Assembly: GCA_030628245.1 (NCBI GenBank)
Contig: DAOVRI010000001.1
Coordinates: 1 to 36,431, forward strand
Length of the DNA: 36,431 bases
Source: Dehalococcoidales bacterium
Lineage (GTDB): Bacteria; Chloroflexota; Dehalococcoidia; Dehalococcoidales; RBG-16-60-22
Reading direction: 5' to 3'
Below the pieces are notes generated by a model that saw nothing but the letters and a program-made list of their open reading frames with translations, was not told where the DNA came from and searched no databases. Position 1 is the stretch's first letter, and each line of letters starts with the position of its first letter. Shown piece by piece: positions 4,633-27,119 of this stretch. Position numbers and translations under genes: made by a program.

Positions 4633-4661
4633 TTGATTTTTAACCAGATGGGTATTAAAAT
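4633..4661 (+). promoter_or_regulatory. sigma70-like promoter candidate (TTGATT-17-TAAAAT)
   Basis: TTGATT at 4633-4638, a 17-nt spacer, and TAAAAT at 4656-4661, in the 98-nt gap before the M24 gene. Motif match only. Confidence 0.35.
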
Positions 4662-4707
4662 CACGTTGCCGTAAAGATATCATTATTATCGGCGAAGGAG
4701 GAGGCTA

Positions 4708-5928: not shown

Positions 5929-5978
5929 CAAGCCCGATAGAGGCTCTTAAGATTGGTATTTAGAAAGGAGGTAATCTC

Positions 5979-7376: not shown

Positions 7377-7437
7377 GCATCCGTATGAAACACAGCATCG
7401 CCGGGTGTTTAAGGCGAGATAAAGAAATAAGATAATA

Positions 7438-8799: not shown

Positions 8800-8860
8800 T
8801 ATTATGACGTGAGGCGTCATAGTGCTAATATATGAAGGGTTAGATATGTAAATATACTGT

Positions 8861-8889
8861 TTAACATTGTCCCCGGGTAACACTATAAT
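8861..8889 (+). promoter_or_regulatory. sigma70-like promoter candidate (TTAACA-17-TATAAT) for the core operon
   Basis: TTAACA at 8861-8866, a 17-nt spacer, and TATAAT at 8884-8889, in the AT-rich 136-nt gap upstream of the FAD/Fe-S/FAD trio. Confidence 0.4.
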
Positions 8890-8935
8890 TACCTGAGAAT
8901 CTTTTATCCGGTAAAAACTGAGGAGGTAGGAAATA

Positions 8936-10396: not shown

Positions 10397-10426
10397 TCCA
10401 AATTAGATAAGGTGAGTAGGTGAAAA

Positions 10427-11689
10427 ATGTTGAAAGTTGAAGAATATAAACATCAAGCCGAAACATGTGTGAGGTGCAGCTACTGCAAGTTTGTCGACCT
10501 CAACTGGGTTAAAAGCTCCCGGTTTTCCCGGCAGTGCCCGATAGACACGAGGTACCGATTCAATCTATATTCGGCGCATGGTTTACTGCACTCAGCCCTA
10601 GCTGAGCTGTCCGGCAAGCTGGAGTTCACCCCGAAACTCATGGATGCTTTGTGGCATTGCACCCTCTGCGGCGGTTGTGACACGAAGTGCAAACGAAACC
10701 TGGATGTCGAGGTGCTGCAGGTAATCGAGACGCTGAGATGCCGGTGCGTGGAACAGGGCAAGGGCCCCTTACCCGAGCATAAGATGCTGGCGGATAACGT
10801 TAAGTCCAGTCACAACATCTACGGCGCCGACCCCAAGGAGCGCCTGAACTGGCTGCCGCCGGACATCAAGCCGGCCAAGAAAGCTGACATCCTTTATTTC
10901 GTCGGTGACCCCATGTCTTACCGGTGGCCGGAACTTGCCCAAGCTACCGCTAAGATTTTGGGAAAAGCCGGAGCCAAATTCATGGTTCTGGAGGATGAAT
11001 GGAGCAGCGGCCATGAGCTGTTTGCCACCGGCCAGCTGGCACCGGCGAAGGAGATGGCCGACCACAACACAAAGGCTATCAAGGACTCAGGCGCCAAGAC
11101 GGTGATAACCAGTGACGCCGAATGCTACAAGACACTCAAGGTGGACTATCCCAAGATAATGGAAAAGTCCACCGAAGATATGCCTTATACCGTCCTGCAC
11201 ATAACGGAGTATATCGACCAGTTGATGCAGGACGGCAAATTCAAATTCAACCGGCGCGTTCCCATGAAGGTAACCTACCATGACCCGTGTAACCTGGGCA
11301 GGCTTGCCGAGCCGTGGTACCACTGGGAACCAAAATATGAGCCGCCCAACATTGCCGTGGGTAAGACATGGCGACGCGGGGAAAAAGGCGTTTATGAGCC
11401 GCCGAGGAATATCCTTAAAGGAATCCGGGGGCTGGAGCTTATCGAAATGGAAAGAATCTGGGATAATGCCTGGTGCTGCGGTTACGGCGGTGGCGTCGGG
11501 ACAGCCTTCCCGGACTTTGCCCTGTGGACAGCCGGCGAAAGAATCGAGGAGGCCATAACAACCGGCGCCGAGGCCATAGTAAGCAGCTGCCCCCACTGTA
11601 AAGACATCCTCGGCAGAGCCGCTGATGCTAATAACACCGGTATCAAGGTTTATGACATTACCGAAGTAATGCTTCGGGCAATCAGGTAG
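10427..11689 (+). CDS. (Fe-S)-binding protein, GlcF/HdrD-like, with two ferredoxin-type Cys motifs and two CCG domains (the first degenerate)
   Basis: 420 aa. CVRCSYC...CP and CTLCGGCDTKC motifs. The C-terminal CCG domain is intact (YHDPCNLGR, WCCGYGGG, SSCPHC). The N-terminal CCG domain reads GD / SSG / TSDAEC. Confidence 0.85.
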   Translation: MLKVEEYKHQAETCVRCSYCKFVDLNWVKSSRFSRQCPIDTRYRFNLYSAHGLLHSALAELSGKLEFTPKLMDALWHCTLCGGCDTKCKRNLDVEVLQVIETLRCRCVEQGKGPLPEHKMLADNVKSSHNIYGADPKERLNWLPPDIKPAKKADILYFVGDPMSYRWPELAQATAKILGKAGAKFMVLEDEWSSGHELFATGQLAPAKEMADHNTKAIKDSGAKTVITSDAECYKTLKVDYPKIMEKSTEDMPYTVLHITEYIDQLMQDGKFKFNRRVPMKVTYHDPCNLGRLAEPWYHWEPKYEPPNIAVGKTWRRGEKGVYEPPRNILKGIRGLELIEMERIWDNAWCCGYGGGVGTAFPDFALWTAGERIEEAITTGAEAIVSSCPHCKDILGRAADANNTGIKVYDITEVMLRAIR

Positions 11690-11710
11690 AAAAAGTTAAA
11701 GGAGATAGCG

Positions 11711-13189
11711 ATGAGCATACCTAGAGAAGCTTATCAGACACTGCAATCTATTGTCGGACCCGAATGGGTTAGCGACGACCCGGCAATCTGTGAGGCCGAC
11801 CGCTATTGCAGTCTGTCCAGTCCTTCTGATGAACAACGCAGACCCGGGTGCAGCATCGAACCGGCCAGCACCGAGGAGGTGCAGGCAATCGTCAAGGTAG
11901 CCAACAGGTACAAGATACCCTACGTCTGCACCAGCACTTTCTACAGCGCCGGTACTTATGCCAGAAAGGACGACTCCATCCTCATCGACCTGAAGAGGAT
12001 GAACGAGATTGAGATAGATGAGAAGAACCTGTACGCTATCGTCGGGCCGGGGGTAGCCTTCTCGGCACTTCAGGCCGACCTGCTCAAGAGGGGTCTCATC
12101 ACCTTTGTCCCGGGGTGCGGCGGCAACTCTTCGGTGCTAGCCAATACCGTTAATATGGGTGATGCCCCTATCGGGTGGAGATACGGCCTTGGTTACCAGC
12201 GGTTATTGGGCGTCGAGTGGGTGCTCCCCGATGGTGAGATGCTGAAGATGGGTTCTCTATCGATGTCAGATGATTACTTCTGGGGCGAAGGACCCGGCCC
12301 CGACCTTCGCGGTCTTTTGAGGGGATGCGCCGGGCATCAGTCGAGACTCGGGATTGTCACCAAGATAGGGGTAAAGATATTCCCCTTCGTCTCCGAGGAG
12401 CTTGAGCCGATGGGCTGGGCATTCCATTCGTTCATGAAGCTACCGCCGAACAGGTTTAAGTGGTATAATATCAGGTTCTATTCCCGGGAAGATGCCATCA
12501 ATGCCATGTTTGAAATCGGCAGGTCTGAGATAGGTCTGGTGGTGATGACGGTGCCACCGATATTCCGGAGTGTTGCCAGGACCAGGGGAGTTGGCTGCGG
12601 CGGCTTCTGGGAAGCCTGGAAAGAAAACGGCCCTAAAATTAAGCCGAACCAGGAAGACCTCCGCGTACTGCTGTACGGTATCGGCTCCGACAAGCGCCTG
12701 GAATACGAGGAGAAGGTTTTACTGGACATAGTCAAGGATTTCGGCGGTTCCCCACGTGAAGCTCCCTGTCGCGATGAAACGAATTTCATGGCTGCCGATG
12801 CCATCTGCGCCAACGTTGTCGGGGGCAGGTTCTCTTCCGAGGTATCCTACGAATCCATCAACCAGGCCGTCAGGTACAGCCGGGTTGTTAATGAGATAAC
12901 GGAAAAGTACAAACCTCGGATACTGGAGGACTACGGCACCACGAACTGGGTCTGCCCCTACGAACTGGGCTACATCGCCAAGATGGAATGCCTCCGCATG
13001 TCTTCTGTGGAAAACAGGGATGCACTGGACAAGTGGCACGACGACGTCCACAAGTTTTGTGCTACGGGAGGTGGTTCTACTATATTCCCCGAAGATGAAA
13101 TATTCGGGCCCGTCTGGGGTAACTACCCTGAAAAGGAAGCTAAAATCAGGGCACTCTTCGACCCGAACCATGTTTCCGCCCCTCAATAG
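11711..13189 (+). CDS. FAD-linked oxidase family protein (GlcE-like position, long form), subunit 3 of trio 1
   Basis: 492 aa. N-terminus YQTLQSIVGPEWVSDDP, LLGVEWVLPDGEMLKMGS, and C-terminus IRALFDPNHVS. SD AAAGGAG upstream. Confidence 0.8.
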   Translation: MSIPREAYQTLQSIVGPEWVSDDPAICEADRYCSLSSPSDEQRRPGCSIEPASTEEVQAIVKVANRYKIPYVCTSTFYSAGTYARKDDSILIDLKRMNEIEIDEKNLYAIVGPGVAFSALQADLLKRGLITFVPGCGGNSSVLANTVNMGDAPIGWRYGLGYQRLLGVEWVLPDGEMLKMGSLSMSDDYFWGEGPGPDLRGLLRGCAGHQSRLGIVTKIGVKIFPFVSEELEPMGWAFHSFMKLPPNRFKWYNIRFYSREDAINAMFEIGRSEIGLVVMTVPPIFRSVARTRGVGCGGFWEAWKENGPKIKPNQEDLRVLLYGIGSDKRLEYEEKVLLDIVKDFGGSPREAPCRDETNFMAADAICANVVGGRFSSEVSYESINQAVRYSRVVNEITEKYKPRILEDYGTTNWVCPYELGYIAKMECLRMSSVENRDALDKWHDDVHKFCATGGGSTIFPEDEIFGPVWGNYPEKEAKIRALFDPNHVSAPQ

Positions 13190-13217
13190 GTAGCAACCCT
13201 TTGGGAAGGAGGATGAT

Positions 13218-14684
13218 ATGTTAAAGACAGCACGCGAGTATACCGAAAGCCTGCGCCATCTGAAACTGAATCTTTACCTGCTTGGCGAAAAGGTCGAGGA
13301 CTGGGTTGATAACCCCATCATCAAGCCGTCAACCAATGCGGTGGCCATGACCTATAAGCTCGCCCACGAACCCGAAATCGAATCCCTGGCCGTCACGGAG
13401 TCCATGCTCACGGGGAAGAAGGTCAACAGGTTCATCTCCCTCTTCAAGAGCCCCGATGATATGGTCAGAAAAATTAAACTGCAGAGAGAGCTGGGACAGA
13501 GAACAGCCTGCTGCTTCCAGAGGTGTGTCGGCATGGACGGCATCAATGCCACCTTCAGTACCACTTATGAAATTGACGAAAAGCACGGCACCGATTACCA
13601 TCAGAAGTTCCGGAAATGGCTGGAATATATCCAGGAGAATGACCTGACTGTCGCCGGGGCCATGACCGATGTCAAGGGACACCGCGGCGTGGCGCCGAGC
13701 CAGCAGAAAGACCCGGATATGTTCGTCCATATCTCCGAACGCCGGGATGACGGTATAATCATAAGGGGGGCCAAGGCCAACATCACCGGAACGGTGAACT
13801 CCCACGAAATGCTGCTCATGCCCACCCTCAGGATGCGCGAGGATGACAAAGACTACGCCGTCTGCTGCGCCGTACCCACCGATGCTCAAGGAATAACCCA
13901 TATCTACGGCAGACAGTCCTGCGATACACGCAAGTTCGAGGAGGGGGACATCGATGTCGGCAACTACGGCTTCGGCGGCCAAGAGACCCTGAGTATCTTT
14001 GATGACGTATTCGTCCCCTGGGACCGTGTCTTCATGAGCGGGGAATATGATTTCGCCATCATGCTGGTAGAGCGGTTCGCCGCTTATCACCGGCAGAGCT
14101 ACGGCGGCTGTAAACCCGGCATTGCTGACGTCCTCATCGGCGCCGCCGCCGCCATGGCCGATTACAACGGCGTACGCCGGGCCGCCCATATCAGGGAGAA
14201 AATCGGGGAGATGATTCACCTTTCCGAGACAATACACGCCTGCGGCCTGGCCAGCGCCTACCAGGGCTGGAAAACCAGGGCGGGCAACTACCAGGCTCAT
14301 ATACTTCTGGCTAACGTCTGCAAGCACAACACGACCAGATTTCCCTACGAAATTACCCGACTGGCTGAGGATATAGCCGGCGGTATCCTGGTCACCACCC
14401 CCTCCGAGAAAGACTTCAGACACCCGGTAATAGGTAAAATCATTGATAAATACCTGAAAGGCGACCCCGCCTATTCCACCGAGGAACGCTACCGCATGCT
14501 ATCGCTCATCCATGCCATGTGCTTCGGCGTGGTTGCCCCCAGCTATCACACCGAGTCCATGCACGGCGCCGGTTCACCGCAGGCGCAGAAGATAATGATT
14601 GAGCGCGAGACCGACATGGATGCCAAGCAACGCTTTGCCCGCAGTATCGCGGGCATTGATAAACGAGAAAACCCACTGGATTAA
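13218..14684 (+). CDS. abfD: 4-hydroxybutyryl-CoA dehydratase / vinylacetyl-CoA isomerase
   Basis: 488 aa. By my recollection it is collinear with C. aminobutyricum AbfD along the whole length (QRCVGMD, FGGQE, YHRQSYGGCK, ESMHGAGSPQAQ). Cys99, Cys103, His291 and Cys298 sit at the [4Fe-4S] ligand positions. Confidence 0.85.
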   Translation: MLKTAREYTESLRHLKLNLYLLGEKVEDWVDNPIIKPSTNAVAMTYKLAHEPEIESLAVTESMLTGKKVNRFISLFKSPDDMVRKIKLQRELGQRTACCFQRCVGMDGINATFSTTYEIDEKHGTDYHQKFRKWLEYIQENDLTVAGAMTDVKGHRGVAPSQQKDPDMFVHISERRDDGIIIRGAKANITGTVNSHEMLLMPTLRMREDDKDYAVCCAVPTDAQGITHIYGRQSCDTRKFEEGDIDVGNYGFGGQETLSIFDDVFVPWDRVFMSGEYDFAIMLVERFAAYHRQSYGGCKPGIADVLIGAAAAMADYNGVRRAAHIREKIGEMIHLSETIHACGLASAYQGWKTRAGNYQAHILLANVCKHNTTRFPYEITRLAEDIAGGILVTTPSEKDFRHPVIGKIIDKYLKGDPAYSTEERYRMLSLIHAMCFGVVAPSYHTESMHGAGSPQAQKIMIERETDMDAKQRFARSIAGIDKRENPLD

Positions 14685-14706
14685 ACCCGGGAAAAGAGGC
14701 GACAAT

Positions 14707-15897
14707 ATGTCTTACTTTCTGAGTCCGAAAAAAATCCTGTTCGGTAAAAATATGCTGAGGAGGTTGGGAGCCGAGCTTGAAGGCCGCGGCAATAAAGCCG
14801 CACTGATTACCGATAAAAACATGGTTAAGCTCAGCGGAGAACTTGTTGAAACGGTTAAGGGCGCCGGGTACGAAGTTAAAATCTGGGACGGAGCGGAGCC
14901 GGAGCCTTCGACGGCAGGTGCTATCGAGGCCAGCAAAATGCTTAAAGAGTTCCAACCCCAGCTGGTCATCGGCTTCGGCGGAGGCTCGGTCCTGGACACG
15001 GCCAAGGCAGCCTGGGTGCTCTATGAGAACCAGGAAATCGCTCCCGACGAGATTACCTCCGTTAACGTAAAGACCAAGCTGAATCCGCAGAAGAAAGCCA
15101 GGTTCATGACTGTCCCTACCACCAGCGGCACCGGCTCGGATGTCACCTGGGCCATCGTGCTCGCGGAGGCCGCCGAACACCGCAAGGTTGGCTTCGCCAA
15201 CACGGAAATAGTGCCCGATATTACGCTGCTGGTTCCCGAGTTTACGTCCGGCATGCCCAGGGCATTGACGGCCAGCACCGGCCTTGACGTTCTGGGCCAC
15301 GCCCTCGACGGGTATACCGCCCGGCAGCAGACAGATTTCAGTGACGGACTCTGCCTGCAGGCCATGAAGCTGGCCTTTGAGTGGCTTCCCAGGGCATGCG
15401 CCGATGGAGCCGACCTCGTGGCCAGGGAGAAAATGCAGAATGCCGCCACCATCGCCGGACTGGGATTCGGCAACAGCAATACGTCACTCTGTCACGCCCT
15501 GGCGCATACCCTCGGGGCTACCTTCAGCATACCTCACGGGCGCTCCGTAGGCATAACATTACCTTATTCGCTGGAATATATCGCCTCGAATCCTGCCATT
15601 GAAGGCGCCCCCGACCCCGTGGAGAGGCTCAGCACCGCCGCCAGGTTTGTCGGGATTAAAGCTGAGTCGGACCAGGAAGCCATCAAAAAGCTGATTCAGA
15701 AGCTAAGAGACCTGGCGAAGGAAACGGGTGAGCCTCTGAGCCTGAAGGAAGCCGGCATCACGGAGCAGCAGATGAACGATAAGCTGGATACCCTGATGGC
15801 TCTCGTCAGCAAGGATGTCAACATGTTCTCCAGTCCCTGCGAATGCAAGGACGAAAAGCTCCGCCAGCTTTTCCAGGACATCTGGGCCGGCAGGTAA
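14707..15897 (+). CDS. iron-containing (group III) alcohol dehydrogenase, possibly 4-hydroxybutyrate dehydrogenase-like
   Basis: I moved the start to the ATG at 14707 (MSYFLSPKKILFG), which has an AAGAGG SD. The longer ORF from 14599 would overlap abfD. Motifs GFGGGSVLDTAKA and CHALAHTLG support the family call. Confidence 0.85.
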   Translation: MSYFLSPKKILFGKNMLRRLGAELEGRGNKAALITDKNMVKLSGELVETVKGAGYEVKIWDGAEPEPSTAGAIEASKMLKEFQPQLVIGFGGGSVLDTAKAAWVLYENQEIAPDEITSVNVKTKLNPQKKARFMTVPTTSGTGSDVTWAIVLAEAAEHRKVGFANTEIVPDITLLVPEFTSGMPRALTASTGLDVLGHALDGYTARQQTDFSDGLCLQAMKLAFEWLPRACADGADLVAREKMQNAATIAGLGFGNSNTSLCHALAHTLGATFSIPHGRSVGITLPYSLEYIASNPAIEGAPDPVERLSTAARFVGIKAESDQEAIKKLIQKLRDLAKETGEPLSLKEAGITEQQMNDKLDTLMALVSKDVNMFSSPCECKDEKLRQLFQDIWAGR

Positions 15898-15936
15898 CAG
15901 CCTGCACACGGAAAATTGAACAAACGAGGTACTGAT

Positions 15937-16797
15937 ATGCCGGTTTGCCAGTTTGGTGGCATCAACATAAATTATAAAGTATTTGGAGAGGGGTTCCCCC
16001 TGGTCTTAATCCATCCGTTCTCAGCCAGCCTGGAGTTTTGGGCACCGCAAATTGAAAAACTGTCACCCAAATACCAGATTATCGCCTATGACGTCCGCGG
16101 CCACGGCTTGTCCTCGGCGCCGGCCGGTGAGGAGAACTACACCCTGGATATCCTCGTGGAAGACCTGCATCACCTGCTCGAACACCTGGGGGTGGCCAAA
16201 GCCTATATCGGCGGCCTTTCTCTCGGCGGCGCCATATCGCTGGGTTACGCCGGCCGCCACCCCGATACGGTAAAAGCCCTGCTTATCTGCGATATTCACG
16301 GCGGCTTCCAGCCGCCTTCCGACCCCGCTATACAGGCCGCCATGGACGAGGGGCGGGAAAAGGGTGAAAGGTATGCCCGGGAGAGAGGCATGGCCGATTT
16401 CGCCCGGCGCCAGATTGCCACCGGAACCGCTTTCCCTCCCGTCCCGAAGGACGAAGCCCTTCAGGAGCAGCATGTCGAGAGAATGGCCAGATTCCCGGTT
16501 AATGGATATATCGGCGTAGGCCGGGCCAGGCCCTGGGAGGCTGAATGGCAGCGCCAGGCTGCCGATAATATTAATGTGCCCACCCTGATAACCGTCGGCA
16601 GTGACGACCTGCCCATGGTAGTATCGGGTACGAGAATATTGCACGAGCATATCAAGGGCTCACGCTACGTGGTAATAAAAGGCTCAGTTCATGAAACAGC
16701 GCGGTGGCGCCCCGATTTGTTTACCCAGGCTGTTATTGAGTTTCTCGAGGCGGTAGAGGCGGGCAAACCGGTAGCGGGAGAAATAACCGTAGGCTAA
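15937..16797 (+). CDS. alpha/beta-fold hydrolase (enol-lactonase / C-C hydrolase-like)
   Basis: Nucleophile elbow GGLSLGG, a PLVLIHPF oxyanion region, and a C-terminal GSVHE His motif. The ATG at 15937 has a GAGG 7 nt upstream. An alternative TTG at 15916 lacks an SD. Confidence 0.75.
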   Translation: MPVCQFGGININYKVFGEGFPLVLIHPFSASLEFWAPQIEKLSPKYQIIAYDVRGHGLSSAPAGEENYTLDILVEDLHHLLEHLGVAKAYIGGLSLGGAISLGYAGRHPDTVKALLICDIHGGFQPPSDPAIQAAMDEGREKGERYARERGMADFARRQIATGTAFPPVPKDEALQEQHVERMARFPVNGYIGVGRARPWEAEWQRQAADNINVPTLITVGSDDLPMVVSGTRILHEHIKGSRYVVIKGSVHETARWRPDLFTQAVIEFLEAVEAGKPVAGEITVG

Positions 16798-16906
16798 GGG
16801 GCTGGCAGTCGTCAGCTTAAGAGTTTGGACTTACCGATTAGATATCGGTGCAAACAGGCGCCCGGTTATGATAATATAAAGCAAATTTGAAACCTGTGGA
16901 GGCAAA

Positions 16907-19549
16907 ATGGTACTGAAAAAGGATAACCCCGTAAAAGCAGCCAAGGGTGAAAAAAGCGTCTGTAAAGGGCTTGGTTTCTGCTCAATATCGGGGGACGCGA
17001 ATTCCTCCGTTATTGATGTCAAAGATGGGAGAATCGTCAGGGTCAGACCGCTGCACTACGACTGGAAATATAAACCTGAAGAATTCAACCCATGGAAGAT
17101 GGAGTCACGCGGTCAGGTCTTTGAGCCAAGCATGAAATCACTGATAGGACCTTTCAGCCTGGCCTATAAGAAGCGGGCTATGTCCCTCAACAGGATTCTA
17201 CATCCGTTAAAAAGAGTCGATTGGGACCCCAACGGAGAAAGAAACACGCAGAACCGGGGCAAGAGCGGCTATGTCAGAATCTCCTGGGACGAGGCCCTGG
17301 ACATCATCGCCAGCGAGATAAAGAGGGTAAACAAGAAGTACGGGCCTTACACGATACTTGCTCAGGCGGATGGTCACGGGGAAACGAAAACCGTACACGC
17401 TCCCCACGGCTGCCAGAGAAGGCTCCTCGACCTTCTGGGGGGATATACCATACAGATGAGGAACCCGGACAGCTGGGAAGGCTGGTACTGGGGTGCCAAG
17501 CATACCTGGGGATGTGAAAATCTGGGTCAACAGTATCCTTTAACCAATGTAATCCCGGATATAGCGGATTACTCGGAGCTGGTGCTGTTCTGGGGTTGCG
17601 ACGTGGAAACCACCCCCTGGGGCTGGCAGGGCCAGCTGCCGAGTCGGCTGTGCTACTGGTTCACCGACCTGGGAATAAAGCAGGTATATATCTGCCCGGA
17701 CCTGAACTACGGAGCGGCGGTTCATGCCGATAAATGGATACCTATATGGCCCAATACCGACGCGGCTATGCGACTGGCCATCGCCCATGTCTGGCTCACC
17801 GAAGGAATCTACGATAAGGATTACGTGGCGAATCACGCCTTTGGATTTGACAAGTTTGCCGAATACGTTCTGGGTAAGGAAGACGGAGTCGCCAAGACCC
17901 CCAAATGGGCGGAGGAGAAATGCGGGGTCCCATCCCGGATTGTCAAAGCCCTGGCCAGGGATTGGGCATCAAAAAAGACATCCATAGCGCATGGCAACGG
18001 CGGTTCTTCTATCAGGGGGCCTTACTCGACAGAGCCCGCCCGGATTGAGGTCTGCCTGCTGGGCATGCAGGGACTGGGTAAGCCCGGCGCGCACTTTGTA
18101 AAAATGATTGAATGGGGCCTGTTTTTTGACCCGGGCTGGCATCCCCTGCCCCGGGCGACAGAGCTACCGGACGTAAATGCCGCCGGTCGCGGGCAGCGGG
18201 TAGGCAGTCCGGCTGTGCAGAGAGGTCTGGCGGCGGATGGTGAAAAGGAGGACATGCAATTCCCCAAGCAGTTCATACCCAAGACCCTCATTCACGATGC
18301 CATTCTTAATCCTCCCCTCACCTGGTACGGTACTACCAGTGCCGGGTTCCCGCGTGACGACCAGTTCGTTCAGTACAAGTACCCGGTAGACGGGTGCTCT
18401 GAAATACACATGATATGGTCCGATACGCCCTGTTTGCTGACGTGCTGGAATGACAGCAACAGCACCGCCAGAGCGTACCAGAGCCCTAAAATCGAGTTCA
18501 TGCTGGTGCAGCACCCCTGGATGGAGAACGACTGCCTCTTCGCCGATATCCTCCTGCCCGTCAATACCAAGTTCGAGGAAGAGGATATCGCCACCGATAA
18601 CTTCAGCGGCCAGTTCAATACCGTGATGTATGAGGACCAGTGCATAGAGCCCAGAGGCGAGTCCAAGACCGACTACGAGGTAGTCTGCATGATAGCCGAA
18701 AGGCTGGGCCTGCTGAAAGAGTACACCAGGGGCCGGTCTGTCAAGGATTGGATAGAGTTCGGCTTTGACCACTCGGAAGTAGCCCCTCTGATCAGCTACG
18801 AGGAACTCAAAGAGAAAGGCTATTATGTTGTGGCCACCGACCCGGACTGGAAGAAACACAAGCCCGGCTTGAGCGGCTTCTGTGAAGACCCGGAGAAAAA
18901 CCCCCTGAAGACCCCTTCCGGGAAGATAGAGTACTATTCCCAGTCTCTGGCGCAGCACTTCCCCGATGACGAGGAGAGGCCGCCGGTTCCTCACTGGATT
19001 GAAAAGGGTGTGAGTCACGATGAAAGCCTTTCCAGCCAGAGAGCCAGGAACTATCCCCTGCTCATAATGTCCAACCACGGCCGGTGGCGGGTGCACGCCA
19101 ACCTTGATGACATAAGCTGGTTCCACGAAATTAAAACCTGCAAGGTTATCGGGGCGGACGGCTACCACTATGAGCCCATCTGGATTCACCCGGCGGACGC
19201 TGAAAAGAGGGGTATCGCCAACGGGGACGTGGTTAAGGTATTCAACGAGAGGGGTGGGGTCCTCGTGGGCGCTTACGTGACGGAGAGAATAATGCCCGGC
19301 GTGGTATATGTCGACCACGGTGCCAGGTACGACCCGATAATCGTGGGCGAGCTTGATAGAGGCGGCGCCATTAATACCATCAGTCCGCATAATTGTACCT
19401 CCAAAAACTGCGCGGGGATGGCGACCAGCGGTTACCTGGTAGAGGTAGGGCGTACCGACCTGGACGAAATGAGGAGACAGTACCCCGAAGCCTTCAACAG
19501 GCCGTACGATAAGGCAACCGGGCAACTTATAGAGCGAGTCATGGTTTAA
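16907..19549 (+). CDS. molybdopterin (bis-MGD) oxidoreductase catalytic subunit, pyrogallol-phloroglucinol transhydroxylase (AthL) / resorcinol-hydroxylase-like
   Basis: 880 aa. There is no N-terminal 4-Cys Fe-S motif and no twin-arginine signal. DPNGERN, ISWDEALD, NPDSWEGWYWG, GFDKFAEYVLGKEDGVAKTPKWAEEKCGVP and the C-terminal molybdopterin-binding barrel (IWIHPADAEKRGIANGDVVKVFNERGGV) match my recollection of AthL. Confidence 0.8.
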   Translation: MVLKKDNPVKAAKGEKSVCKGLGFCSISGDANSSVIDVKDGRIVRVRPLHYDWKYKPEEFNPWKMESRGQVFEPSMKSLIGPFSLAYKKRAMSLNRILHPLKRVDWDPNGERNTQNRGKSGYVRISWDEALDIIASEIKRVNKKYGPYTILAQADGHGETKTVHAPHGCQRRLLDLLGGYTIQMRNPDSWEGWYWGAKHTWGCENLGQQYPLTNVIPDIADYSELVLFWGCDVETTPWGWQGQLPSRLCYWFTDLGIKQVYICPDLNYGAAVHADKWIPIWPNTDAAMRLAIAHVWLTEGIYDKDYVANHAFGFDKFAEYVLGKEDGVAKTPKWAEEKCGVPSRIVKALARDWASKKTSIAHGNGGSSIRGPYSTEPARIEVCLLGMQGLGKPGAHFVKMIEWGLFFDPGWHPLPRATELPDVNAAGRGQRVGSPAVQRGLAADGEKEDMQFPKQFIPKTLIHDAILNPPLTWYGTTSAGFPRDDQFVQYKYPVDGCSEIHMIWSDTPCLLTCWNDSNSTARAYQSPKIEFMLVQHPWMENDCLFADILLPVNTKFEEEDIATDNFSGQFNTVMYEDQCIEPRGESKTDYEVVCMIAERLGLLKEYTRGRSVKDWIEFGFDHSEVAPLISYEELKEKGYYVVATDPDWKKHKPGLSGFCEDPEKNPLKTPSGKIEYYSQSLAQHFPDDEERPPVPHWIEKGVSHDESLSSQRARNYPLLIMSNHGRWRVHANLDDISWFHEIKTCKVIGADGYHYEPIWIHPADAEKRGIANGDVVKVFNERGGVLVGAYVTERIMPGVVYVDHGARYDPIIVGELDRGGAINTISPHNCTSKNCAGMATSGYLVEVGRTDLDEMRRQYPEAFNRPYDKATGQLIERVMV

Positions 19550-19646
19550 TAGTCCCACCCATTGCCCCGAGTAAATCCGGACGATGCTTAACGAGAACGG
19601 GCAACGCCGGGCTTACTATGTCTTTTATTTACGGGGAGGATGTAGA

Positions 19647-20222
19647 GTGATATTAATTATCGGGATAACCGGGGCTTCTGGAGCGATATACGGCATCCGG
19701 CTGCTCGAGGTATTATCGTCCAATAAAGAAGTGGAAACACACCTTATCATTTCTGAAGTCGGAGAAGAAATTATAAGGCATGAGACCGATTGGGGGCTGG
19801 AGCAGGTAAGAGCCCTGGCGGATGTCTGCTACGACATCAACGATATCGGGGCCAGGCTTTCCAGCGGCTCGTTCAAGAGGGACGGCATGGTGATTGCCCC
19901 CTGCAGCATGAAGACCCTTTCGGCACTGGCGAACTCATACACGGATAACCTGATTACCCGCGCCGCCGATATCGCATTGAAAGAGAGAAAGAGGCTGGTT
20001 TTGCTGGCGAGAGAGACCCCGCTTCATCTGGGTCACCTGAGAAACATGGTAAAGCTGACGGAGATGGGCGCTATTGTCTTTCCGCCGATTCCCGCCTTTT
20101 ATCATAAACCGGAGACAATCCGGGACCTCGTCGACCACACGGTCGGTAAGGTTCTGGACGTATTTGATATCAAGCACGACCTCTTCAAAAGATGGGAGGG
20201 CCTGAACAGCGAAGATAAGTAA
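19647..20222 (+). CDS. ubiX: flavin prenyltransferase UbiX (prFMN synthase)
   Basis: The GTG at 19647 lies 7 nt after GGAGG and gives VILIIGITGASGAIYG. The APCSMKTLSALA and LKERKRLVLLARETPL motifs are also present. The longer ORF from 19584 adds an atypical N-terminus. Confidence 0.9.
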   Translation: MILIIGITGASGAIYGIRLLEVLSSNKEVETHLIISEVGEEIIRHETDWGLEQVRALADVCYDINDIGARLSSGSFKRDGMVIAPCSMKTLSALANSYTDNLITRAADIALKERKRLVLLARETPLHLGHLRNMVKLTEMGAIVFPPIPAFYHKPETIRDLVDHTVGKVLDVFDIKHDLFKRWEGLNSEDK

Positions 20223-20233: not shown

Positions 20234-20671
20234 TTACCTCTTAAGAAACGAGCCCAATTTTTCCAGGCGGTTCCCCCTTTTCCTGGCTACCATCGTAAAA
20301 GCCCGGGGAACATCTGCCATCAGAGACCTTGATTGTTCGGCTGCATCCGTATAAAAGTTGATAATCGTCTTTTCTATCTCCACAGCCTGTTTTAAAATAT
20401 CGGCGTAGTCCGTCCCGTCCGGTACCGCCGTCTTTAAGGTGTAGTCGTCCGGGTCGATATTAAACGCAAAACAGCCCTCAATGGCATCGGTGATAACTCC
20501 ATAGTAGGCCCTCTCAACCTGGACTACATTTTTCTTGTTCTCTCCGGCAAAAGAGAGGAAAATCTCGGCATCTTCCGCGTTTCGCTGAGCCAGATTCTCG
20601 TAGAACTCCGCCGAGTCATTTTCGAGTTTCCTGGCAAAGGTGATGCCCTCGGATGCTGTGTGTAATATCAT
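20234..20671 (-). CDS. small ferritin-like / rubrerythrin-fold four-helix protein of unknown function
   Basis: 145 aa. The helical repeat pattern (LENDSAEFYENLA, VQVERAYY, AVEIEKTIINFYTDAA) resembles ferritin-like domains, but no ExxH motifs are visible. It lies 19 nt downstream of the ALDH gene. Confidence 0.4.
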   Translation of the reverse strand: MILHTASEGITFARKLENDSAEFYENLAQRNAEDAEIFLSFAGENKKNVVQVERAYYGVITDAIEGCFAFNIDPDDYTLKTAVPDGTDYADILKQAVEIEKTIINFYTDAAEQSRSLMADVPRAFTMVARKRGNRLEKLGSFLKR

Positions 20672-20690: not shown

Positions 20691-22184
20691 TTAAAACCAC
20701 CTTTGAATAACGACCTTGCTTTCCGTGAAGAAGCGAACCGCCTCCCGTCCCTGTGTGTGCAGCACTCCGAAGAATGAATCCTTCATGCCGCTGAACGGGA
20801 AGAAGGCCATCGGCGCGACGATACCGATGTTGATACCGACGTTGCCGCTAATAATGTTGTACTGATACTCTCTGGCGCTTTTGCCACTTGTCGTAAAGAT
20901 GGAGTCGCCATTGCCGTATGGGTTGGCATTGGCAATCTCTATCGCTTCGTTCAGGTCTTTCACCCGTATGACACTCATTACAGGGCCAAAAATTTCTTCG
21001 GAACCTATTCTCATATCCGGTGTGACGTCCTCGAAGATAGTTGGGCCAAGAAAACATGTTTCCGGATAGTCGCCCACAATCTTGATATCTTTTCTGCCAT
21101 CAAGTCTGATTTTCGCCCCCTGTTTTATACCGCTTTCTATATAACTTATGATGTTATCCTTTTTCCCCTTGTCCCGCACCGGCCCCATTTGCACCGATTC
21201 ATCAAGTCCGTAACCAATCTTTATGTTGGAGGTTTGTTCGACAACCCTGTCCATGAAACTCTTGTAGAAGGCGTCGTCTTCACCGACAATAACGGCATTG
21301 GCCGCCGATAGGCATCGCTGACCGGTATTACCGAAAAACGAAGTCATCATGGCCGTCACGGTCCTTTCTACATCGCAGTCGGGCATGATGGTCATGAAGT
21401 TCTTCGCACTAGCCTGAGCAATATACTTCTTGCCTGTCTCACCGCACTTCTTACAAATAACTTCTTTTGCTGTTGAAGTGCGCCCGACGAAGGTTATTCC
21501 CTTAACATCCGGATGCTCCAGCACGCGGCCGACAACAGCTCTTTCGCCATTGACTACGTTCCATACTCCGGGAGGGAAACCGGCTTCTTCCACTAGCTCG
21601 GCCAGTTTCATTTGACTGTTGGGGACCTCCGGCGATGGTTTTACTATCACGCAGTTGCCGGTAGCTACGGCATACGGCGCCGACCAGAGCGGAATCATAA
21701 ACGGGAAGTTGAAAGGACCTATAATACCGAAAACCCCCAGGGGTGTGGGAATTACCCACTCGTCGATGCCATGGGCAATATCCTCGGAATAATATCCCTG
21801 CATTAACGTAGGGATACCGCAGGCGACCTCCACGTTTTCGATGCCGCGCCGGGTCTCGCCCCTCGACTCATCTATGGTCTTGCCATGTTCCTGTGTCTGG
21901 ATTCTGCTGACTTCCTCAAAATTCTCTTCCAGTAACTCTTTCAATCGGTAGAGATACCTCGCCCTGGCTACCGGAGTCGTCCTCCGCCAGTCGGGGAATG
22001 CCGCTTTGGCGGCTTCCACGGCGGCATCCATTTCTTCGCCGGTCGAGATAGGTACTTTAGCAATTGTCTGGTATGTAGCGGGGTTTACCACGTCGACGAC
22101 TTCACCTTTAGATTCCACCCACTCTCCGTCGATATAATTTTTAAGGGTTCTGACCTCTTTTATTGGTTCTTCCAGAAGAGCCAT
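20691..22184 (-). CDS. mmsA: CoA-acylating methylmalonate/malonate-semialdehyde dehydrogenase family aldehyde dehydrogenase
   Basis: 497 aa. LKNYIDGEWVES...VVNPAT, GKTIDESRGETRRGIENVEVACG, catalytic GQRCLSA, and a C-terminal PMAFFPFSGMKDSFFG block characteristic of MmsA/IolA. SD GGAGGAG upstream. Confidence 0.85.
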   Translation of the reverse strand: MALLEEPIKEVRTLKNYIDGEWVESKGEVVDVVNPATYQTIAKVPISTGEEMDAAVEAAKAAFPDWRRTTPVARARYLYRLKELLEENFEEVSRIQTQEHGKTIDESRGETRRGIENVEVACGIPTLMQGYYSEDIAHGIDEWVIPTPLGVFGIIGPFNFPFMIPLWSAPYAVATGNCVIVKPSPEVPNSQMKLAELVEEAGFPPGVWNVVNGERAVVGRVLEHPDVKGITFVGRTSTAKEVICKKCGETGKKYIAQASAKNFMTIMPDCDVERTVTAMMTSFFGNTGQRCLSAANAVIVGEDDAFYKSFMDRVVEQTSNIKIGYGLDESVQMGPVRDKGKKDNIISYIESGIKQGAKIRLDGRKDIKIVGDYPETCFLGPTIFEDVTPDMRIGSEEIFGPVMSVIRVKDLNEAIEIANANPYGNGDSIFTTSGKSAREYQYNIISGNVGINIGIVAPMAFFPFSGMKDSFFGVLHTQGREAVRFFTESKVVIQRWF

Positions 22185-22327: not shown

Positions 22328-24001
22328 TTACTCAATCGGGTCGTCTAGGGTACGGTAATATCCATCACCGAGGTCATTGGGATTGAAGGTCTCCTTAAAC
22401 TTACGCTGGTAGCGAAACGCCTCCGGTTGCGCCGCCGCCCCGAGTATGCGGTCGCGTATTTCCTTGGGGGTTGTTTTGCCATCGGTCCACCTGGCGTAAT
22501 CGTTCATTTTCTCCATACCGGGACCAAAGCCTTTTTCCATACCGTACTTGTCGGTAGCATTAAAGAATTCGAAGGTTCCTTCCGTTGATGCCTTATCAGC
22601 CGGGTCGAAATGGGTGAAGTTCTCCCAAAGGGCGTGGCCTCCGCCTCCCATACCACCTATTCCTCCCATCATGGCGTCACCACCACAGGCGACAACATTG
22701 CCCTTCTTCTCCCATTCAACCTTGAATGCCGTTGCCTGTTCAACACGCGGTGGTTCTCCAGAAGCCCCGAAGTCCGGAGTCCCTCCCAGTCCGAAACAGC
22801 CGTCATAGCCGCCTCCATAAACGAGGTTCAGATTCTTGTGCCCCAGCCTTATCATGTAAAGTAGAGACCAGTTATACAGGTCGGGTTCCAGCATCGCCTT
22901 TACCTTCCAGCCTCCGGTCTCTTCCAGTATCTTATCCAGAGCTTTGTCCTGCCATTCGATATCCCCCGGGGTCATGCCCGCCAGGACAATCTGGTAATCG
23001 CGCTTCATATCCTCGGTCATTTTCTGTACTTCCGGGTCTTTCAGCAGTTCCTCAATGTCGGAAAGCGTTTTGGTGGGGTCGGACAGTATCCTGACCATGG
23101 CACCCTTCAGGTCTCTGCCGAACATGCTGAACTGCCGGTGAGCGACGTAGCCGATTCCCGCGTCGAAAATCAGGTAACAGGAATCAGCCCACGCCTTCCA
23201 GGCCGGGAAGCCCAGGGTATATACCCTGAAGTTGTCCGGCAGCACCGCTTTGTAGGCGGGCGGCTTCCCCTCGACCGGTAGCGGGGCCGGTCCGGGCCAG
23301 GGGTAGAGTTTGATGGCGCACTTGGTGAATACGCCCATCGCCCCGTTAGTACCTATCATTCCCCGGACGAGTCCTTTCAGACTGGGTCCCGGCCCGTCAC
23401 AGCAGAACCAGCCCAACCCGGAGCCCACCGAGCCTACCCTCAGGACTTCCCCATCAGGCATGACCCATTCCACGCCGAGCAGATTCTCATTGTGATGACC
23501 CATGTAAAGGGTATCCGGTCCAAGTCCTCCCAAGGCAGTAGCACTGGCGAGGCAGGAACAGCTGGCGCCGGGCCCATGGATGTGGGTATTCAGTCCCACC
23601 TTCATCGCTTCAGCCTGAAGTGTCGCCCCGATGACATGCGGCTCAACCACGGCAAAATTGTTCTTATCATCAATCTCCAGGATTCGGTCCATCCGCCTCA
23701 TATCCAGCTGGATGGTGTCATCCTCTAAAGGAAACCCCCAGGCCGACCAGAACGTACTGGAAGGCTTAAATTTTACCCTGTATTTGTTGCATAATTTGAC
23801 GATGCCCTGGACCTCTTCGGCGCTTCCCGGCAGCAGGACAGCCGCCCCCCTGGGCGTGTATACCCGGTAATAGGGGCCGATGTGAATGGCGGTATGAGAC
23901 AGCGGGTACCGGTAACAATCCAATAATGCCGGGTCGTCGGATATGTTCTCCTTGCCCACAATTCCTTCTAGTTCCCGATAGGCTTCTCTCGATAGTGCCA
24001 T
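22328..24001 (-). CDS. FAD-linked oxidase family protein, subunit 3 of trio 2 (paralog of 11711-13189)
   Basis: 557 aa. YRELEGIVGKENISDDP and LLGVEWVMPDGEVLRVGS are collinear with the 492-aa paralog. It carries an extra Gly/Met-rich segment, GGDAMMGGIGGMGGGGH. Confidence 0.8.
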   Translation of the reverse strand: MALSREAYRELEGIVGKENISDDPALLDCYRYPLSHTAIHIGPYYRVYTPRGAAVLLPGSAEEVQGIVKLCNKYRVKFKPSSTFWSAWGFPLEDDTIQLDMRRMDRILEIDDKNNFAVVEPHVIGATLQAEAMKVGLNTHIHGPGASCSCLASATALGGLGPDTLYMGHHNENLLGVEWVMPDGEVLRVGSVGSGLGWFCCDGPGPSLKGLVRGMIGTNGAMGVFTKCAIKLYPWPGPAPLPVEGKPPAYKAVLPDNFRVYTLGFPAWKAWADSCYLIFDAGIGYVAHRQFSMFGRDLKGAMVRILSDPTKTLSDIEELLKDPEVQKMTEDMKRDYQIVLAGMTPGDIEWQDKALDKILEETGGWKVKAMLEPDLYNWSLLYMIRLGHKNLNLVYGGGYDGCFGLGGTPDFGASGEPPRVEQATAFKVEWEKKGNVVACGGDAMMGGIGGMGGGGHALWENFTHFDPADKASTEGTFEFFNATDKYGMEKGFGPGMEKMNDYARWTDGKTTPKEIRDRILGAAAQPEAFRYQRKFKETFNPNDLGDGYYRTLDDPIE

Positions 24002-24019
24002 GTCTCAATCCTTCCGTTG

Positions 24020-25291
24020 TTATATTGCCTGTTTGACGAGGTCGGTAACATCAAAGACCTTCAATTTTTCGCCAGCGGCATTAATGGCATCGATAAAGTT
24101 CCGCTCACACCACGGGCAGGCGCTCACTATTGCCTCAGCGCCGGTGGACTTCGCCTCCTCAATCCTTTCCGTAGCCGTCCAGCTGGAAAAGTCAGGGTAG
24201 GCTTCTTTTACCCCACCCCCGGCGCCACAGCACCAGGCATACTCCCTGATTCTCTCCATCTCCACCAGTTCCAGACCGGGGATACTCTTAAGCACGTCTC
24301 TCGGCGGGTCATAGACACCCCAGGCCCCGTTGTACCTCGGCCTTCTCGGCTCATAGACCACTATTTGATTCTTGACTTTCTTCTCTTTGCCTTCCCAGGG
24401 TACATAGGGCTCTCCCTGACGGCCCAGATGACAGGGGTCGTGGTAGGTAACGCGCATGGGTATAGTTTTGCTGAACTTAATCTTGCCTTCCTTAATCAGG
24501 CGGTCGAAATACTGCACGGTATGGAGAATCTCGAACTTCGCTCCCAGGGGAGGATAAAGGCGTGAAAAGGCGCGAAAGCAATCGGCGCAGGGGGTTACCA
24601 CCGTCTTGACACCGGCCGCAGTCCAGGCCTTGATAGTATTCTCCGCAAGCCTGGTGAATTCTTCTTTATAGCCCATGTCATAGGCTCTGCCGCCGCAACA
24701 GGACTCGTCTACCCCCATGATGCCGATATCAACGCCGGCATTTTTAAGAAGGGTTACGGCCGACCTGGCTGTTTCCTGCAGTTCTTCATCGTAGCTGAAC
24801 CGGCAGCCGGCATAGAAGAGCACTTCCGCCGACTCACCGGGGATACGCTTGACGTCCAGGCCTTCAGCCCAATCGCCGCGGTTGGCTCCGGATTTCATCA
24901 TCATGTTGTTTTCTTTACCGAGATGCTCGATAACAGCGGTAAGCTGCGGCAGCACCTGACCATCCTCAACCAGCCTGAATTTTAACTCATGTATCATCTC
25001 CAGCGGTTCCAAGTTGTAGCGGCAAATCTTATCGGAAACGTCACAGGACCCGCAGGTCGTGCATTTATAAACTATATCCACCACCCTATCGGAATAAGTG
25101 CTCTGGCCGTTCAGGAGCGACAGGGCGACAGCGTACCTGCCGCGCGCGGAGTAACTCAGGAAGTTATTATAGGCAATACTGGGACATCCCTTGGCAAACC
25201 TCCAGCTCTTTACCTGGTCAAATGGAATCCACTTGCAGTACGAGCACTGGCTGCACCTCTCCATATCAACTTTATAGTCTTCTAGCGCCAA
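24020..25291 (-). CDS. (Fe-S)-binding protein, GlcF/HdrD-like, both CCG domains intact (paralog of 10427-11689)
   Basis: 423 aa with a TTG start. CSQCSYC...CP and CTTCGSC motifs. CCG domain 1 reads AGCRF, SCCGG, TPCADC. CCG domain 2 reads YHDPCHLGR, WCCGAGGG, SACPWC. Confidence 0.85.
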   Translation of the reverse strand: MALEDYKVDMERCSQCSYCKWIPFDQVKSWRFAKGCPSIAYNNFLSYSARGRYAVALSLLNGQSTYSDRVVDIVYKCTTCGSCDVSDKICRYNLEPLEMIHELKFRLVEDGQVLPQLTAVIEHLGKENNMMMKSGANRGDWAEGLDVKRIPGESAEVLFYAGCRFSYDEELQETARSAVTLLKNAGVDIGIMGVDESCCGGRAYDMGYKEEFTRLAENTIKAWTAAGVKTVVTPCADCFRAFSRLYPPLGAKFEILHTVQYFDRLIKEGKIKFSKTIPMRVTYHDPCHLGRQGEPYVPWEGKEKKVKNQIVVYEPRRPRYNGAWGVYDPPRDVLKSIPGLELVEMERIREYAWCCGAGGGVKEAYPDFSSWTATERIEEAKSTGAEAIVSACPWCERNFIDAINAAGEKLKVFDVTDLVKQAI

Positions 25292-25325
25292 TTTCTGATG
25301 CCTTCTTTCTTTGTTTTTCTTGCGC

Positions 25326-26789
25326 TTAAAAGCATAGCTTACCCGGGTTCATCACGTTGTTGGGGTCGAATATTCCCTTAAGCTTCTTTAGTACCATCGT
25401 AGTCTGCGCATCCCGACCGTATGCCAGATCTGCCCAGATGCCATAGGGTCGCGAGAAGAAAGCCCCCTGCTCAATCAGCTCTTCACTGGCTATAGTCAGG
25501 AGCTGCTGCATCCTGGTTGCCTCTTCCGGATTGTCCCGGTCGAAGGGGAGGATAAACTCGCAATGGACATTGGCTCCCTGGTGCAGCGGCTGGATGTAAA
25601 CGCCGATATCCGAGGCCGGGTACCCGCTTGCTTCGGCCACCGAGTTCATTGTCTTGATAAATTCCGGCGTCCTGTTGAGGGTGGTCAGGAAGAGGATATC
25701 CTGGTATCCCCCCTTTAAGTCGAGTTTCCAGTAGGGCTCCCGGGACGGGTTGAGTATCGCTTTCAGTACTTCATCGCTCCCGGCTCCGGGGATTTCCGAC
25801 ACGAGCTGCTGGCCGAATTTCCCGGCAATATCCGCGATGTCCTTCTCCTGATACGCAACCCTTTCCTCGGGGAGTATACTGCGTCCGGCTATGCCCACCA
25901 GGACAACCCAGGGTGGGAGTTCTTTCATCAGGGCTTTGATATGGTCGGCTCCGTTTCCAAGGATAGCTGCCAGGCTCGCGTTGTTCAATAACAAAAGCTC
26001 GTCGGCAAATCTGAACTTCAGGAGCTGGTAAGTAAAATCAAGCAGGTCATCAGGCCTCTGGGCCGGCACGAAGAAGAGCTTGTGGAGGGCGGGTAATATC
26101 TCGCATTTTACCGATGCCCAGGTCACAATGCCCATGCTCCCCTGGGCGGCGGAAACAAACCTGTAGAAATCCGCCTGCCCCGGACCCGTAGCACCTGCCG
26201 GGGCCTGTTTCCTCTCCCAGGCCTCTTCAAATGAGGACCAGTTACCGGCGTCGCCGGTTACCAGCTTGTGACCGTCTCCCCAGATAATTTCATTACATCG
26301 CAACGGGTCGAGTGACGCCCACAGTTGCCGGGGAATCAGGGTAGGCTCCCTCTCCAGGAGACTGGCTACCACCGACTTGCTGGCCCGCGGGAGCAACGGC
26401 GTCGTAAGCCTCAGGCCTTCCCTGGCCAGTTCTGGCTGGAGTTCGGAGTAGGTTACCCCCGGCTCAACCATTGCCACCCTGTTTCTGCGGTCAATCCTCA
26501 TGACCTTCTTCATTCCGCTCAGGTCTACGATGACCGCTCCCGGTACGCCGGGAACAGTATCACCGTGGAAGCGCGGCGGCCCCGAACTCACCGGAACCAG
26601 CGGTGTGGCAGTCTGATTAGCCCACCTGACCAGCGCCTGAACCTCATCAGCGCTCCCGGGCTTTACCACTACCCGGGGTTTCACAGGTTTGACGAAGCTA
26701 AAATCCCTGGAATAGGCGTCCAACGTTTCAGGGTCATCAAAAACATTTTCCGAACTCACGATACCGGCCAATTCTTCTTTTAAAGCCAT
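25326..26789 (-). CDS. FAD-linked oxidase (GlcD-like), subunit 1 of trio 2 (paralog of 8936-10396)
   Basis: 487 aa. IVSSENVFDDPE, LEREPTLIP, and the C-terminal FDPNNVMNPGKLCF. SD GGAGGAAGG upstream. Confidence 0.85.
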   Translation of the reverse strand: MALKEELAGIVSSENVFDDPETLDAYSRDFSFVKPVKPRVVVKPGSADEVQALVRWANQTATPLVPVSSGPPRFHGDTVPGVPGAVIVDLSGMKKVMRIDRRNRVAMVEPGVTYSELQPELAREGLRLTTPLLPRASKSVVASLLEREPTLIPRQLWASLDPLRCNEIIWGDGHKLVTGDAGNWSSFEEAWERKQAPAGATGPGQADFYRFVSAAQGSMGIVTWASVKCEILPALHKLFFVPAQRPDDLLDFTYQLLKFRFADELLLLNNASLAAILGNGADHIKALMKELPPWVVLVGIAGRSILPEERVAYQEKDIADIAGKFGQQLVSEIPGAGSDEVLKAILNPSREPYWKLDLKGGYQDILFLTTLNRTPEFIKTMNSVAEASGYPASDIGVYIQPLHQGANVHCEFILPFDRDNPEEATRMQQLLTIASEELIEQGAFFSRPYGIWADLAYGRDAQTTMVLKKLKGIFDPNNVMNPGKLCF

Positions 26790-27081: not shown

Positions 27082-27119
27082 TCATGTAATCTTAAAAAGT
27101 CACGTGGGAGGAAATGAAT

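Follow-up and report, generated by a model that had tools for sequence, protein, structure and literature searches.

Where does a molybdenum enzyme that is encoded without its iron-sulfur partner obtain one, and does it need one at all? The question is raised by a gene at positions 16907-19549 (+ strand) of a 36,431-nucleotide stretch of DNA from a Dehalococcoidales bacterium. This stretch, called the window below, covers positions 2217-38647 of a metagenome scaffold of 41.7 kb (ENA ERZ23498673 scaffold_317). The gene, called the query, codes for an 880-residue homolog of AthL, the large (alpha) subunit of the pyrogallol-phloroglucinol transhydroxylase AthL/BthL of Pelobacter acidigallici (PDB 4v4c). 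In the canonical locus, viewed through a 96%-identical AthL homolog, athL is followed after 50 bp by the gene of a 274-residue small (beta) subunit with Fer4_11 and CarboxypepD_reg domains, and there is no TorD/NarJ-type chaperone gene. In RhLS and DbhLS the beta genes likewise adjoin the alpha genes. The query, in contrast, has no adjacent beta, and an initial annotation made from the sequence of the window left three options: a catalytic subunit that stands alone, one that is served by a FAD/CCG module, or a beta gene that lies elsewhere.

The query is an intact Mo catalytic subunit and belongs, in Dehalococcoidia, to a large, as yet uncharacterized group that is sister to pyrogallol transhydroxylase. 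It is a cytoplasmic subunit carrying Mo bis-molybdopterin guanine dinucleotide (Mo-bisMGD) and one of several diverged alpha paralogs in the Dehalococcoidales genome. On balance, it appears to rely on a beta that it shares with other alphas, one kind of beta probably serving several of them in trans. The query's own supply would come from a beta gene situated about 20 kb away, directly after a second alpha, alpha2.

The query open reading frame (ORF) starts with the ATG at 16907, 4 nt downstream of a ribosome-binding site, GGAGG, read from the sequence (16898-16902, +). Its product has three Pfam domains, each scoring above its cut-off: an AhtL-like N-terminal domain (AhtL-like_1st, PF21423; residues 38-88, 17018-17170, +; 38.6 bits against a cut-off of 27) that lacks the FS0 four-cysteine motif, the Molybdopterin oxidoreductase domain (PF00384; residues 96-599, 17192-18703, +; 93 bits), and the Molydop_binding (molybdopterin dinucleotide-binding) domain (PF01568; residues 754-829, 19166-19393, +; 68.6 bits). 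This architecture is that of the AthL-like superclade. A 16-residue loop insertion (residues 435-450, 18209-18256, +) is seen in the alignment only in the query's ortholog clade. At least 10 contigs carry an intact ortholog (75-96% identity). No molybdenum-cofactor riboswitch or other RNA was matched in an Rfam scan, and a scan for promoters and terminators around the gene gave nothing above chance.

The resemblance to the transhydroxylase large subunit, proposed in the initial annotation, is borne out by both sequence and fold. The top match of the query in the PDB is AthL (4v4c_A; E=7e-140, 471 bits, residues 35-854 aligned), with 38% identity over 779 aligned columns, while dimethyl sulfoxide (DMSO) and trimethylamine N-oxide (TMAO) reductases score about 265 bits. 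An AlphaFold2 model computed from a 33-sequence alignment (mean predicted local distance difference test score, pLDDT, 75.3; predicted template-modeling score, pTM, 0.81) has the four-domain MopB fold of AthL, including the AhtL-type N-terminal domain, and 4v4c_A is its rank-1 structural match with a template-modeling (TM) score of 0.82. The next matches are the single-subunit enzymes MtsZ, DorA and TorA, with TM scores of 0.72-0.76. The query does not belong to the single-subunit S/N-oxide reductases (BisC/TorA/DorA), its scores with the bisC, dmsA and torA models of NCBIfam being far below the cut-offs (367 versus 1017.55 for bisC_fam, 291.7 versus 1465 for torA and 354 versus 778 for TIGR02166). 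As had been noted, the N-terminus (MVLKKDNPVKAAKGEKSVCKGLGFCSISGD...) contains neither a twin-arginine motif nor a four-cysteine motif, the only cysteines being Cys19 and Cys25. The lack of the four-cysteine motif, of a twin-arginine translocation (Tat) signal and of a chaperone gene is normal, because AthL, which is likewise cytoplasmic and without an FS0 cluster, and the canonical athL-bthL locus also lack them.

The missing beta is a different matter. A hidden Markov model (HMM) of beta, built from the approximately 275-residue Fe-S ORFs downstream of relatives of the query gene, detected no BthL-like gene in the 36-kb window at E<=1e-5. A tblastn search of the window with one beta gave a best E of 1.2, and a scan of it for beta-type cysteine motifs found nothing. 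No TorD/NarJ-family Pfam domain was matched among the 27 window proteins. The query therefore has no adjoining BthL-type gene of the kind that characterizes AthL/PgtL, and the reported absence of both beta and chaperone holds for the window as such. That no beta is nearby is, however, mostly an effect of where the window ends, because alpha2 lies just to the left of it and every alpha2 ortholog has a beta gene directly behind it.

The window begins with a divergent intergenic region (1-441) between the gene of a DUF35 protein (442-879) and alpha2, a second AthL-like alpha that is 64% identical to the query, has the same domains and is transcribed divergently from the DUF35 gene. The first 736 residues of alpha2 are encoded at 2-2209 (-) of the contig (L083; comparison loci and contigs are numbered with the prefix L), starting 8 bp to the left of window position 1. 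The downstream side of alpha2 is not visible in this sample, because all six contigs with an identical DUF35 gene (L085-L090) stop within alpha2. In each of the four loci with alpha2 orthologs of 89-95% identity (L013, L020, L091, L092), a beta gene is situated immediately downstream. By sequence comparison, a beta would thus be predicted after alpha2 about 3 kb to the left of the window, past the end of the contig.

The JGI contig Ga0315541_1000184 (66.4 kb) is collinear with positions 38-29400 of the window at 93-94% nucleotide identity. It carries an ortholog of the query (P0246, 27245-29887) with 96.5% amino acid identity, which falls into the same 90% cluster and has the same neighbors. 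This contig is locus L174; the metagenome-assembled genomes GCA_034430675.1 (L173) and GCA_964402025.1 (L175) also contain the 96.5% ortholog, and a DUF35 protein identical to that of the window is encoded in GCA_023128425.1. Across the DUF35/thiolase block from this ortholog, at 10010-1, is an array arranged as alpha2-beta-alpha3-alpha'-beta'-beta, in which alpha2 has 875 residues, beta 272, alpha3 871, alpha' 839 and beta' 274; only the start of the third beta is present, at the contig end. The betas of this contig, like those of the query family in general, are BthL homologs (4v4c_B, E=1e-57; Fer4_11 and CarboxypepD_reg domains), and the beta shares 41% identity with the BthL-type protein encoded at the canonical locus. 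The beta nearest to the query ortholog is 19.9 kb away. Betas were also found in a metagenome-assembled genome with an 88% ortholog of the query (JAUWGD01, L004), a further contig of which (L018) contains a beta fragment, an alpha, an alpha' and another beta fragment. These findings support the option that the beta gene lies elsewhere. Assemblies evidently break at the paralogous repeats of Mo-enzyme and beta genes, and scans limited to a window therefore miss beta genes systematically. The puzzle of the missing beta is largely resolved as an effect of window and contig edges, and the interest that remains is at the level of the family rather than of this locus.

The family of the query comprises more than 5,800 proteins at E<=1e-20; identity to the query is 64-87% for the best 120 of these. 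In species-representative genomes, 598 family loci were found. The hosts include Dehalococcoidia, Anaerolineales, Actinomycetota (Gaiellales, Thermoleophilia, and Eggerthellaceae/Gordonibacter), Desulfobacteraceae, Peptococcaceae, Sporomusa acidovorans and others. The query falls into a group termed clade B, or the "DGHGE" clade: it is at least about 54% identical to members across phyla, carries the D-G-H-G-E motif and is placed among them in a neighbor-joining tree. The position of the nearest beta was determined for the 172 full-length clade-B alphas in 160 fetched loci. It is directly downstream of 78, directly upstream only of 11 and elsewhere in the locus for 21. No beta is present in the fetched locus for 45 of the 172, and 16 of these 45 are flanked by 5 kb or more of sequence on either side; for 17 a contig end cuts off the position. 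In total there are 203 alpha ORFs and 112 ORFs of BthL-type betas, which are three-cluster Fe-S proteins, and the two kinds often form arrays such as alpha-alpha-beta-alpha-alpha' (L009, L013, L025, L043).

The beta-less alphas form several clades in the neighbor-joining tree, nested among alpha-beta clades. The query groups with L003, L004, L002 and L005, which are all beta-less. Their sister is L007, which has the same syntenic cluster (acyl-CoA dehydrogenase, M24, flavoprotein, CoA-transferase, FAD4-CCG-FAD4, alpha) and a beta 3.3 kb downstream. True AthL lies far from the query, in a clade that also contains two beta-linked genes (L043, L082).

Because there are more alphas than betas, and because the betas of one genome are nearly identical to each other, a single kind of beta probably serves more than one alpha. 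The two betas of L013 (2030-2854 and 9118-9945) have 100% identical protein sequences, while the adjacent alphas are only 64-70% identical. At the DNA level these betas are 99.5% identical over 844 bp, and the similarity is limited to the beta gene. On one Chloroflexia contig, L007 has an orphan beta (15885-16703) that is 95% identical to the beta of L012 (9053-9895), while the alphas are 60-66% identical. The pattern points to gene conversion, or to a recent duplication, that affected beta only. Near-identity is a feature of the lineage, because in the non-Chloroflexi loci L024 and L038 the betas have diverged as much as the alphas. A generically higher conservation of beta was considered and rejected, as the mean identities across phyla are 59% for beta and 58% for alpha; beta is the more conserved within genomes only. 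Among beta-linked alphas, 253 alignment columns are conserved to at least 90%; in the solo alphas 239 of these are equally conserved, and a rate-shift test found relaxation at positions 588 and 740 only. No indel separating solo from beta-linked alphas was found. These two tests say no more than that the solo alphas give no indication of a lost beta interface.

Several observations weigh against a shared beta. The beta genes were seen on a contig that is 93-94% identical to the window and not on the window's own contig, which ends inside alpha2, and the pairing of the query with any beta is one that we infer. The conservation test is blind to any interface residue with a conservation below 90%. 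Adjacent alphas and betas co-diverge across phyla (r=0.76), which would fit dedicated rather than promiscuous pairing. Finally, one beta-less clade spans Dehalococcoidales, Thermoleophilia and Gaiellales, and the persistence of beta-less clades across phyla is easier to understand if beta is dispensable.

The most probable of the alternatives is that the query is a genuine stand-alone alpha with no Fe-S partner, which either catalyzes a redox-neutral reaction or takes electrons directly at the pterin, as do DorA, TorA, BisC and MtsZ. We regard it as possible but a good deal less likely than a borrowed beta. The beta-less alphas are indeed stable and intact clades, one of them common to Chloroflexota and Actinomycetota, and around 16 of their members the sequence extends for at least 5 kb in each direction. 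The second-tier structural relatives of the query (TM score about 0.74) are single-subunit enzymes, and the Fe-S clusters of AthL/BthL are not known to have a catalytic role. DorA, TorA, BisC and MtsZ also resemble the query in having no Fe-S cluster in the catalytic subunit and a serine ligand to Mo; they differ in lacking the AhtL-type N-terminal domain, and their periplasmic members have Tat signals. Against a stand-alone alpha are the beta genes linked to the orthologous locus, the beta retained by the sister locus L007 within the same cluster, and the identity of betas within genomes, which points to a shared module. Moreover, neither a loss of conserved surface nor an indel distinguishes the solo alphas from the beta-linked ones. 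A more far-reaching version is more doubtful still: the query-type and other beta-less clades, about one third of the family, might be beta-independent AthL-type enzymes with a remodeled site (DGHGE, no Tyr404) that catalyze a new anaerobic hydroxylation or hydroxyl-transfer step leading into a 4-hydroxybutyryl-CoA route in sediment Dehalococcoidia.

The gene neighborhood bears on the next alternative as well as on the likely pathway. The content of the block upstream of the query (3467-16797, +) was compared across the orthologous loci L002, L003, L004, L123 and L173-175. The genes conserved with the query alpha code for an acyl-CoA dehydrogenase, an M24 hydrolase, a fumarate-reductase-like flavoprotein, a CoA-transferase of the acetyl-CoA-hydrolase family, a 4-hydroxybutyryl-CoA dehydratase, and an iron alcohol dehydrogenase (Fe-ADH) and/or a PcaD-like alpha/beta hydrolase. 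The dehydratase gene ("HpaB", 13218-14684, +) encodes a 4-hydroxybutyryl-CoA dehydratase/vinylacetyl-CoA isomerase (PDB 1u8v, E=1e-200). Together with the CoA-transferase (7438-8799), the Fe-ADH (14707-15897) and an aldehyde dehydrogenase (20691-22184, -), it makes up a module for the conversion of 4-hydroxybutyrate to crotonyl-CoA that surrounds the Mo gene, a context not known for AthL-type enzymes. The immediate flanking genes are those of an alpha/beta hydrolase and UbiX, as originally reported. The rest of the neighborhood codes for UbiX, UbiD, an MtaA/CmuA-like protein, a TRAP transporter, aldehyde dehydrogenase and a tungsten aldehyde ferredoxin oxidoreductase (AOR).

Two modules of the type FAD_binding_4, Fer4_8+CCG, FAD_binding_4 (GlcD-GlcF-GlcE-like) flank the query in the window, one inside the upstream block (8936-13189, +) and one downstream (22328-26789, -). 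It is very unlikely that such a module replaces beta as the electron conduit of the query. One module is kept in L003, L004, L007 and L173-175. On the other hand, the modules are complete units of the 2-hydroxyacid-dehydrogenase type by themselves and are variably present in orthologous loci: no such module is found within 10 kb of the 85% ortholog in L002, and at the 84% ortholog in L123 the upstream one is missing. These two loci rule out an obligate partnership and weaken the option of service by the FAD/CCG module. We know of no precedent for CCG proteins docking on a MopB subunit.

The active site was compared in an alignment of 101 alpha sequences, 73 of which were assigned to groups. 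The segment RNPDSWEGWYW of the query carries Asp188 and Ser189 (17468-17473, +), which correspond to Asp174 and the Mo ligand Ser175 in the NPDSWEGW segment of AthL and are invariant in 73 of 73 grouped alphas. Trp190 and His157 are also invariant in every alpha group. The suspicion that the Mo-ligating serine had been lost, based on the segment ILAQADGHGE, is therefore unfounded: that segment aligns with ILSTPSSHHM of AthL, the region of His144 and not of the serine, and its His157 is the equivalent of His144. The clade motif D155-G-H157-G-E159 (17369-17383, +) aligns to S142-S-H144-H-M of AthL, the histidine being kept and the rest replaced. The D, G, G and E of the motif are present in 41-43 of 43 beta-linked clade-B alphas and in 13-17 of 17 other solo ones.

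The similarity to the AthL pocket ends there. In the 2004 structure paper, His144, Asp174, Arg153, Tyr404, Trp354 and Tyr560, which are conserved in the AthL clade, reportedly form the substrate/cosubstrate pocket of AthL. Only His144 and Asp174 of these six residues are kept in the query. Throughout the query's clade, the AthL-clade sequence S142-S-H-H-M-W147 is changed to D-G-H-G-E-T, Arg153 to Pro or Ala (Pro in the query), Trp354 to Gly and Tyr404 to Val or a gap (Val in the query), while Tyr560 is deleted. These replacements are found in every member of the clade, whether beta-linked or not, and His145 and Trp147 are likewise replaced or deleted. Because four active-site residues of the AthL clade are replaced throughout the clade, the function of the query is probably not that of AthL. 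The label "AthL-like" is thus correct as a statement of homology and probably wrong as a statement of function, and the query is probably not a true pyrogallol-phloroglucinol transhydroxylase. The reaction, which would depend on Mo, is likely to hydroxylate a phenolic or related compound or to transfer a hydroxyl group on it. The product would feed the CoA-transferase, the 4-hydroxybutyryl-CoA dehydratase and the beta-oxidation-like genes, so that the carbon would end as 4-hydroxybutyryl-CoA/crotonyl-CoA.

The least likely of the alternatives is a bona fide transhydroxylase in a route from gallate by way of pyrogallol (UbiD/UbiX) to phloroglucinol: although AthL is the closest characterized homolog, UbiD/UbiX, the TRAP transporter and an MtaA-like methyltransferase are encoded close by, and Chloroflexi homologs have been so annotated (PMC3971608, PMC4959651), the identity to AthL is just 38%, Arg153, Trp354, Tyr404, Tyr560, His145 and Trp147 are replaced or deleted clade-wide, the co-resident alpha' class retains the AthL-clade residues, and the conserved neighbors belong to the 4-hydroxybutyryl-CoA module. 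The canonical phloroglucinol pathway (PMC10470551) was sought and rejected, since the window proteins include no phloroglucinol reductase, no cyclase-family dihydrophloroglucinol cyclohydrolase and no BKACE lyase.

The alpha' genes form a second class of alphas within the same arrays. Their products have about 840 residues, are 40% identical to the query and, unlike the query's clade, keep the AthL signature (SSHH.W, Tyr404, Tyr560). They are located at 16202-18721 (+) of L091, 5642-8185 of L013, 3177-5696 of L017 and 3304-5823 of L018. In L091, L013 and L017, alpha' is followed directly by its own beta', and L018 is cut at the contig end; the alpha' members of L009 and L035 have no beta directly downstream. 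Judged by these residues, alpha' would be the better candidate for the true transhydroxylase in genomes with such arrays.

Compared with AthL, the query is thus in a separate deep clade, with DGHGET in place of SSHHMW and a different gene context. The resorcinol hydroxylase RhLS of Azoarcus anaerobius and the 3,5-dihydroxybenzoate hydroxylase DbhLS of Thauera aromatica AR-1 are AthL-family alpha-beta Mo hydroxylases of meta-dihydroxy aromatics and not transhydroxylases (PMC10100899). The subunit logic of the query's family, with its shared beta, probably differs from that of the three characterized enzymes. Gut catechol dehydroxylases were considered as relatives and rejected, as they belong to another MopB clade. 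A parallel in gene organization is offered by YnfEFGH/DmsABC of Escherichia coli, where tandem MopB catalytic paralogs outnumber betas as in the alpha-alpha-beta-alpha arrays: YnfE and YnfF are encoded in tandem ahead of one, shared YnfG. The Ynf/Dms alphas differ in having FS0, Tat signals and a membrane anchor and fall into the other clade to which TIGR02166 (354 versus 778 for the query) applies.

New here is an alpha of the AthL superclade that combines a remodeled pocket with a gene arrangement of many alphas and fewer betas. Among the oxidoreductases of subsurface Dehalococcoidia, the AthL-like genes are one of the most expanded families, and the routine label "pyrogallol hydroxytransferase" underpins claims that these organisms ferment plant polyphenols. 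AthL-like genes of Chloroflexi have been read as pyrogallol hydroxytransferases in operons with small subunits in RBG-2 and RBG-1351 (PMC3971608), and the three copies of DEH-C11 have been read likewise (PMC4959651). A literature search found no biochemical characterization of the query's clade. The dominant clade lacks the transhydroxylase pocket, its arrays have many alphas and fewer betas, and its context here is that of 4-hydroxybutyryl-CoA; the functional annotation is therefore probably wrong.

Some further features of the window deserve mention. The UbiX gene (19584-20222, +) is directly downstream of the Mo gene, and the UbiD gene (27701-29155, -) is 7.5 kb off on the opposite strand. 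This UbiD is distant from characterized decarboxylases, its best PDB match being 7pda (207 bits). A furan-dicarboxylate route from UbiD/UbiX was considered and rejected in view of the weak similarity of UbiD to HmfF (177 bits). The neighboring gene at 29199-30533 (-) codes for a 444-residue URO-D/MtaA-CmuA-like protein, the C-terminal 200 residues of which match the family, while the N-terminal 235 or so match nothing. The gene of a 145-residue protein without a Pfam or NCBIfam match (20234-20671, -) is found beside that of the aldehyde dehydrogenase in L003, L004, L006, L123 and L173-175. A chagasin-family (I42) peptidase-inhibitor gene (27114-27608, +) is situated between the catabolic operons, and its position is kept in L004, L173 and L174. 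The mechanically called ORF of the Fe-ADH (14599-15897, +) has a TTG start and overlaps the dehydratase gene by 86 bp; a start at window position 14707, as in the gene call on the source contig (396 residues), is more plausible.

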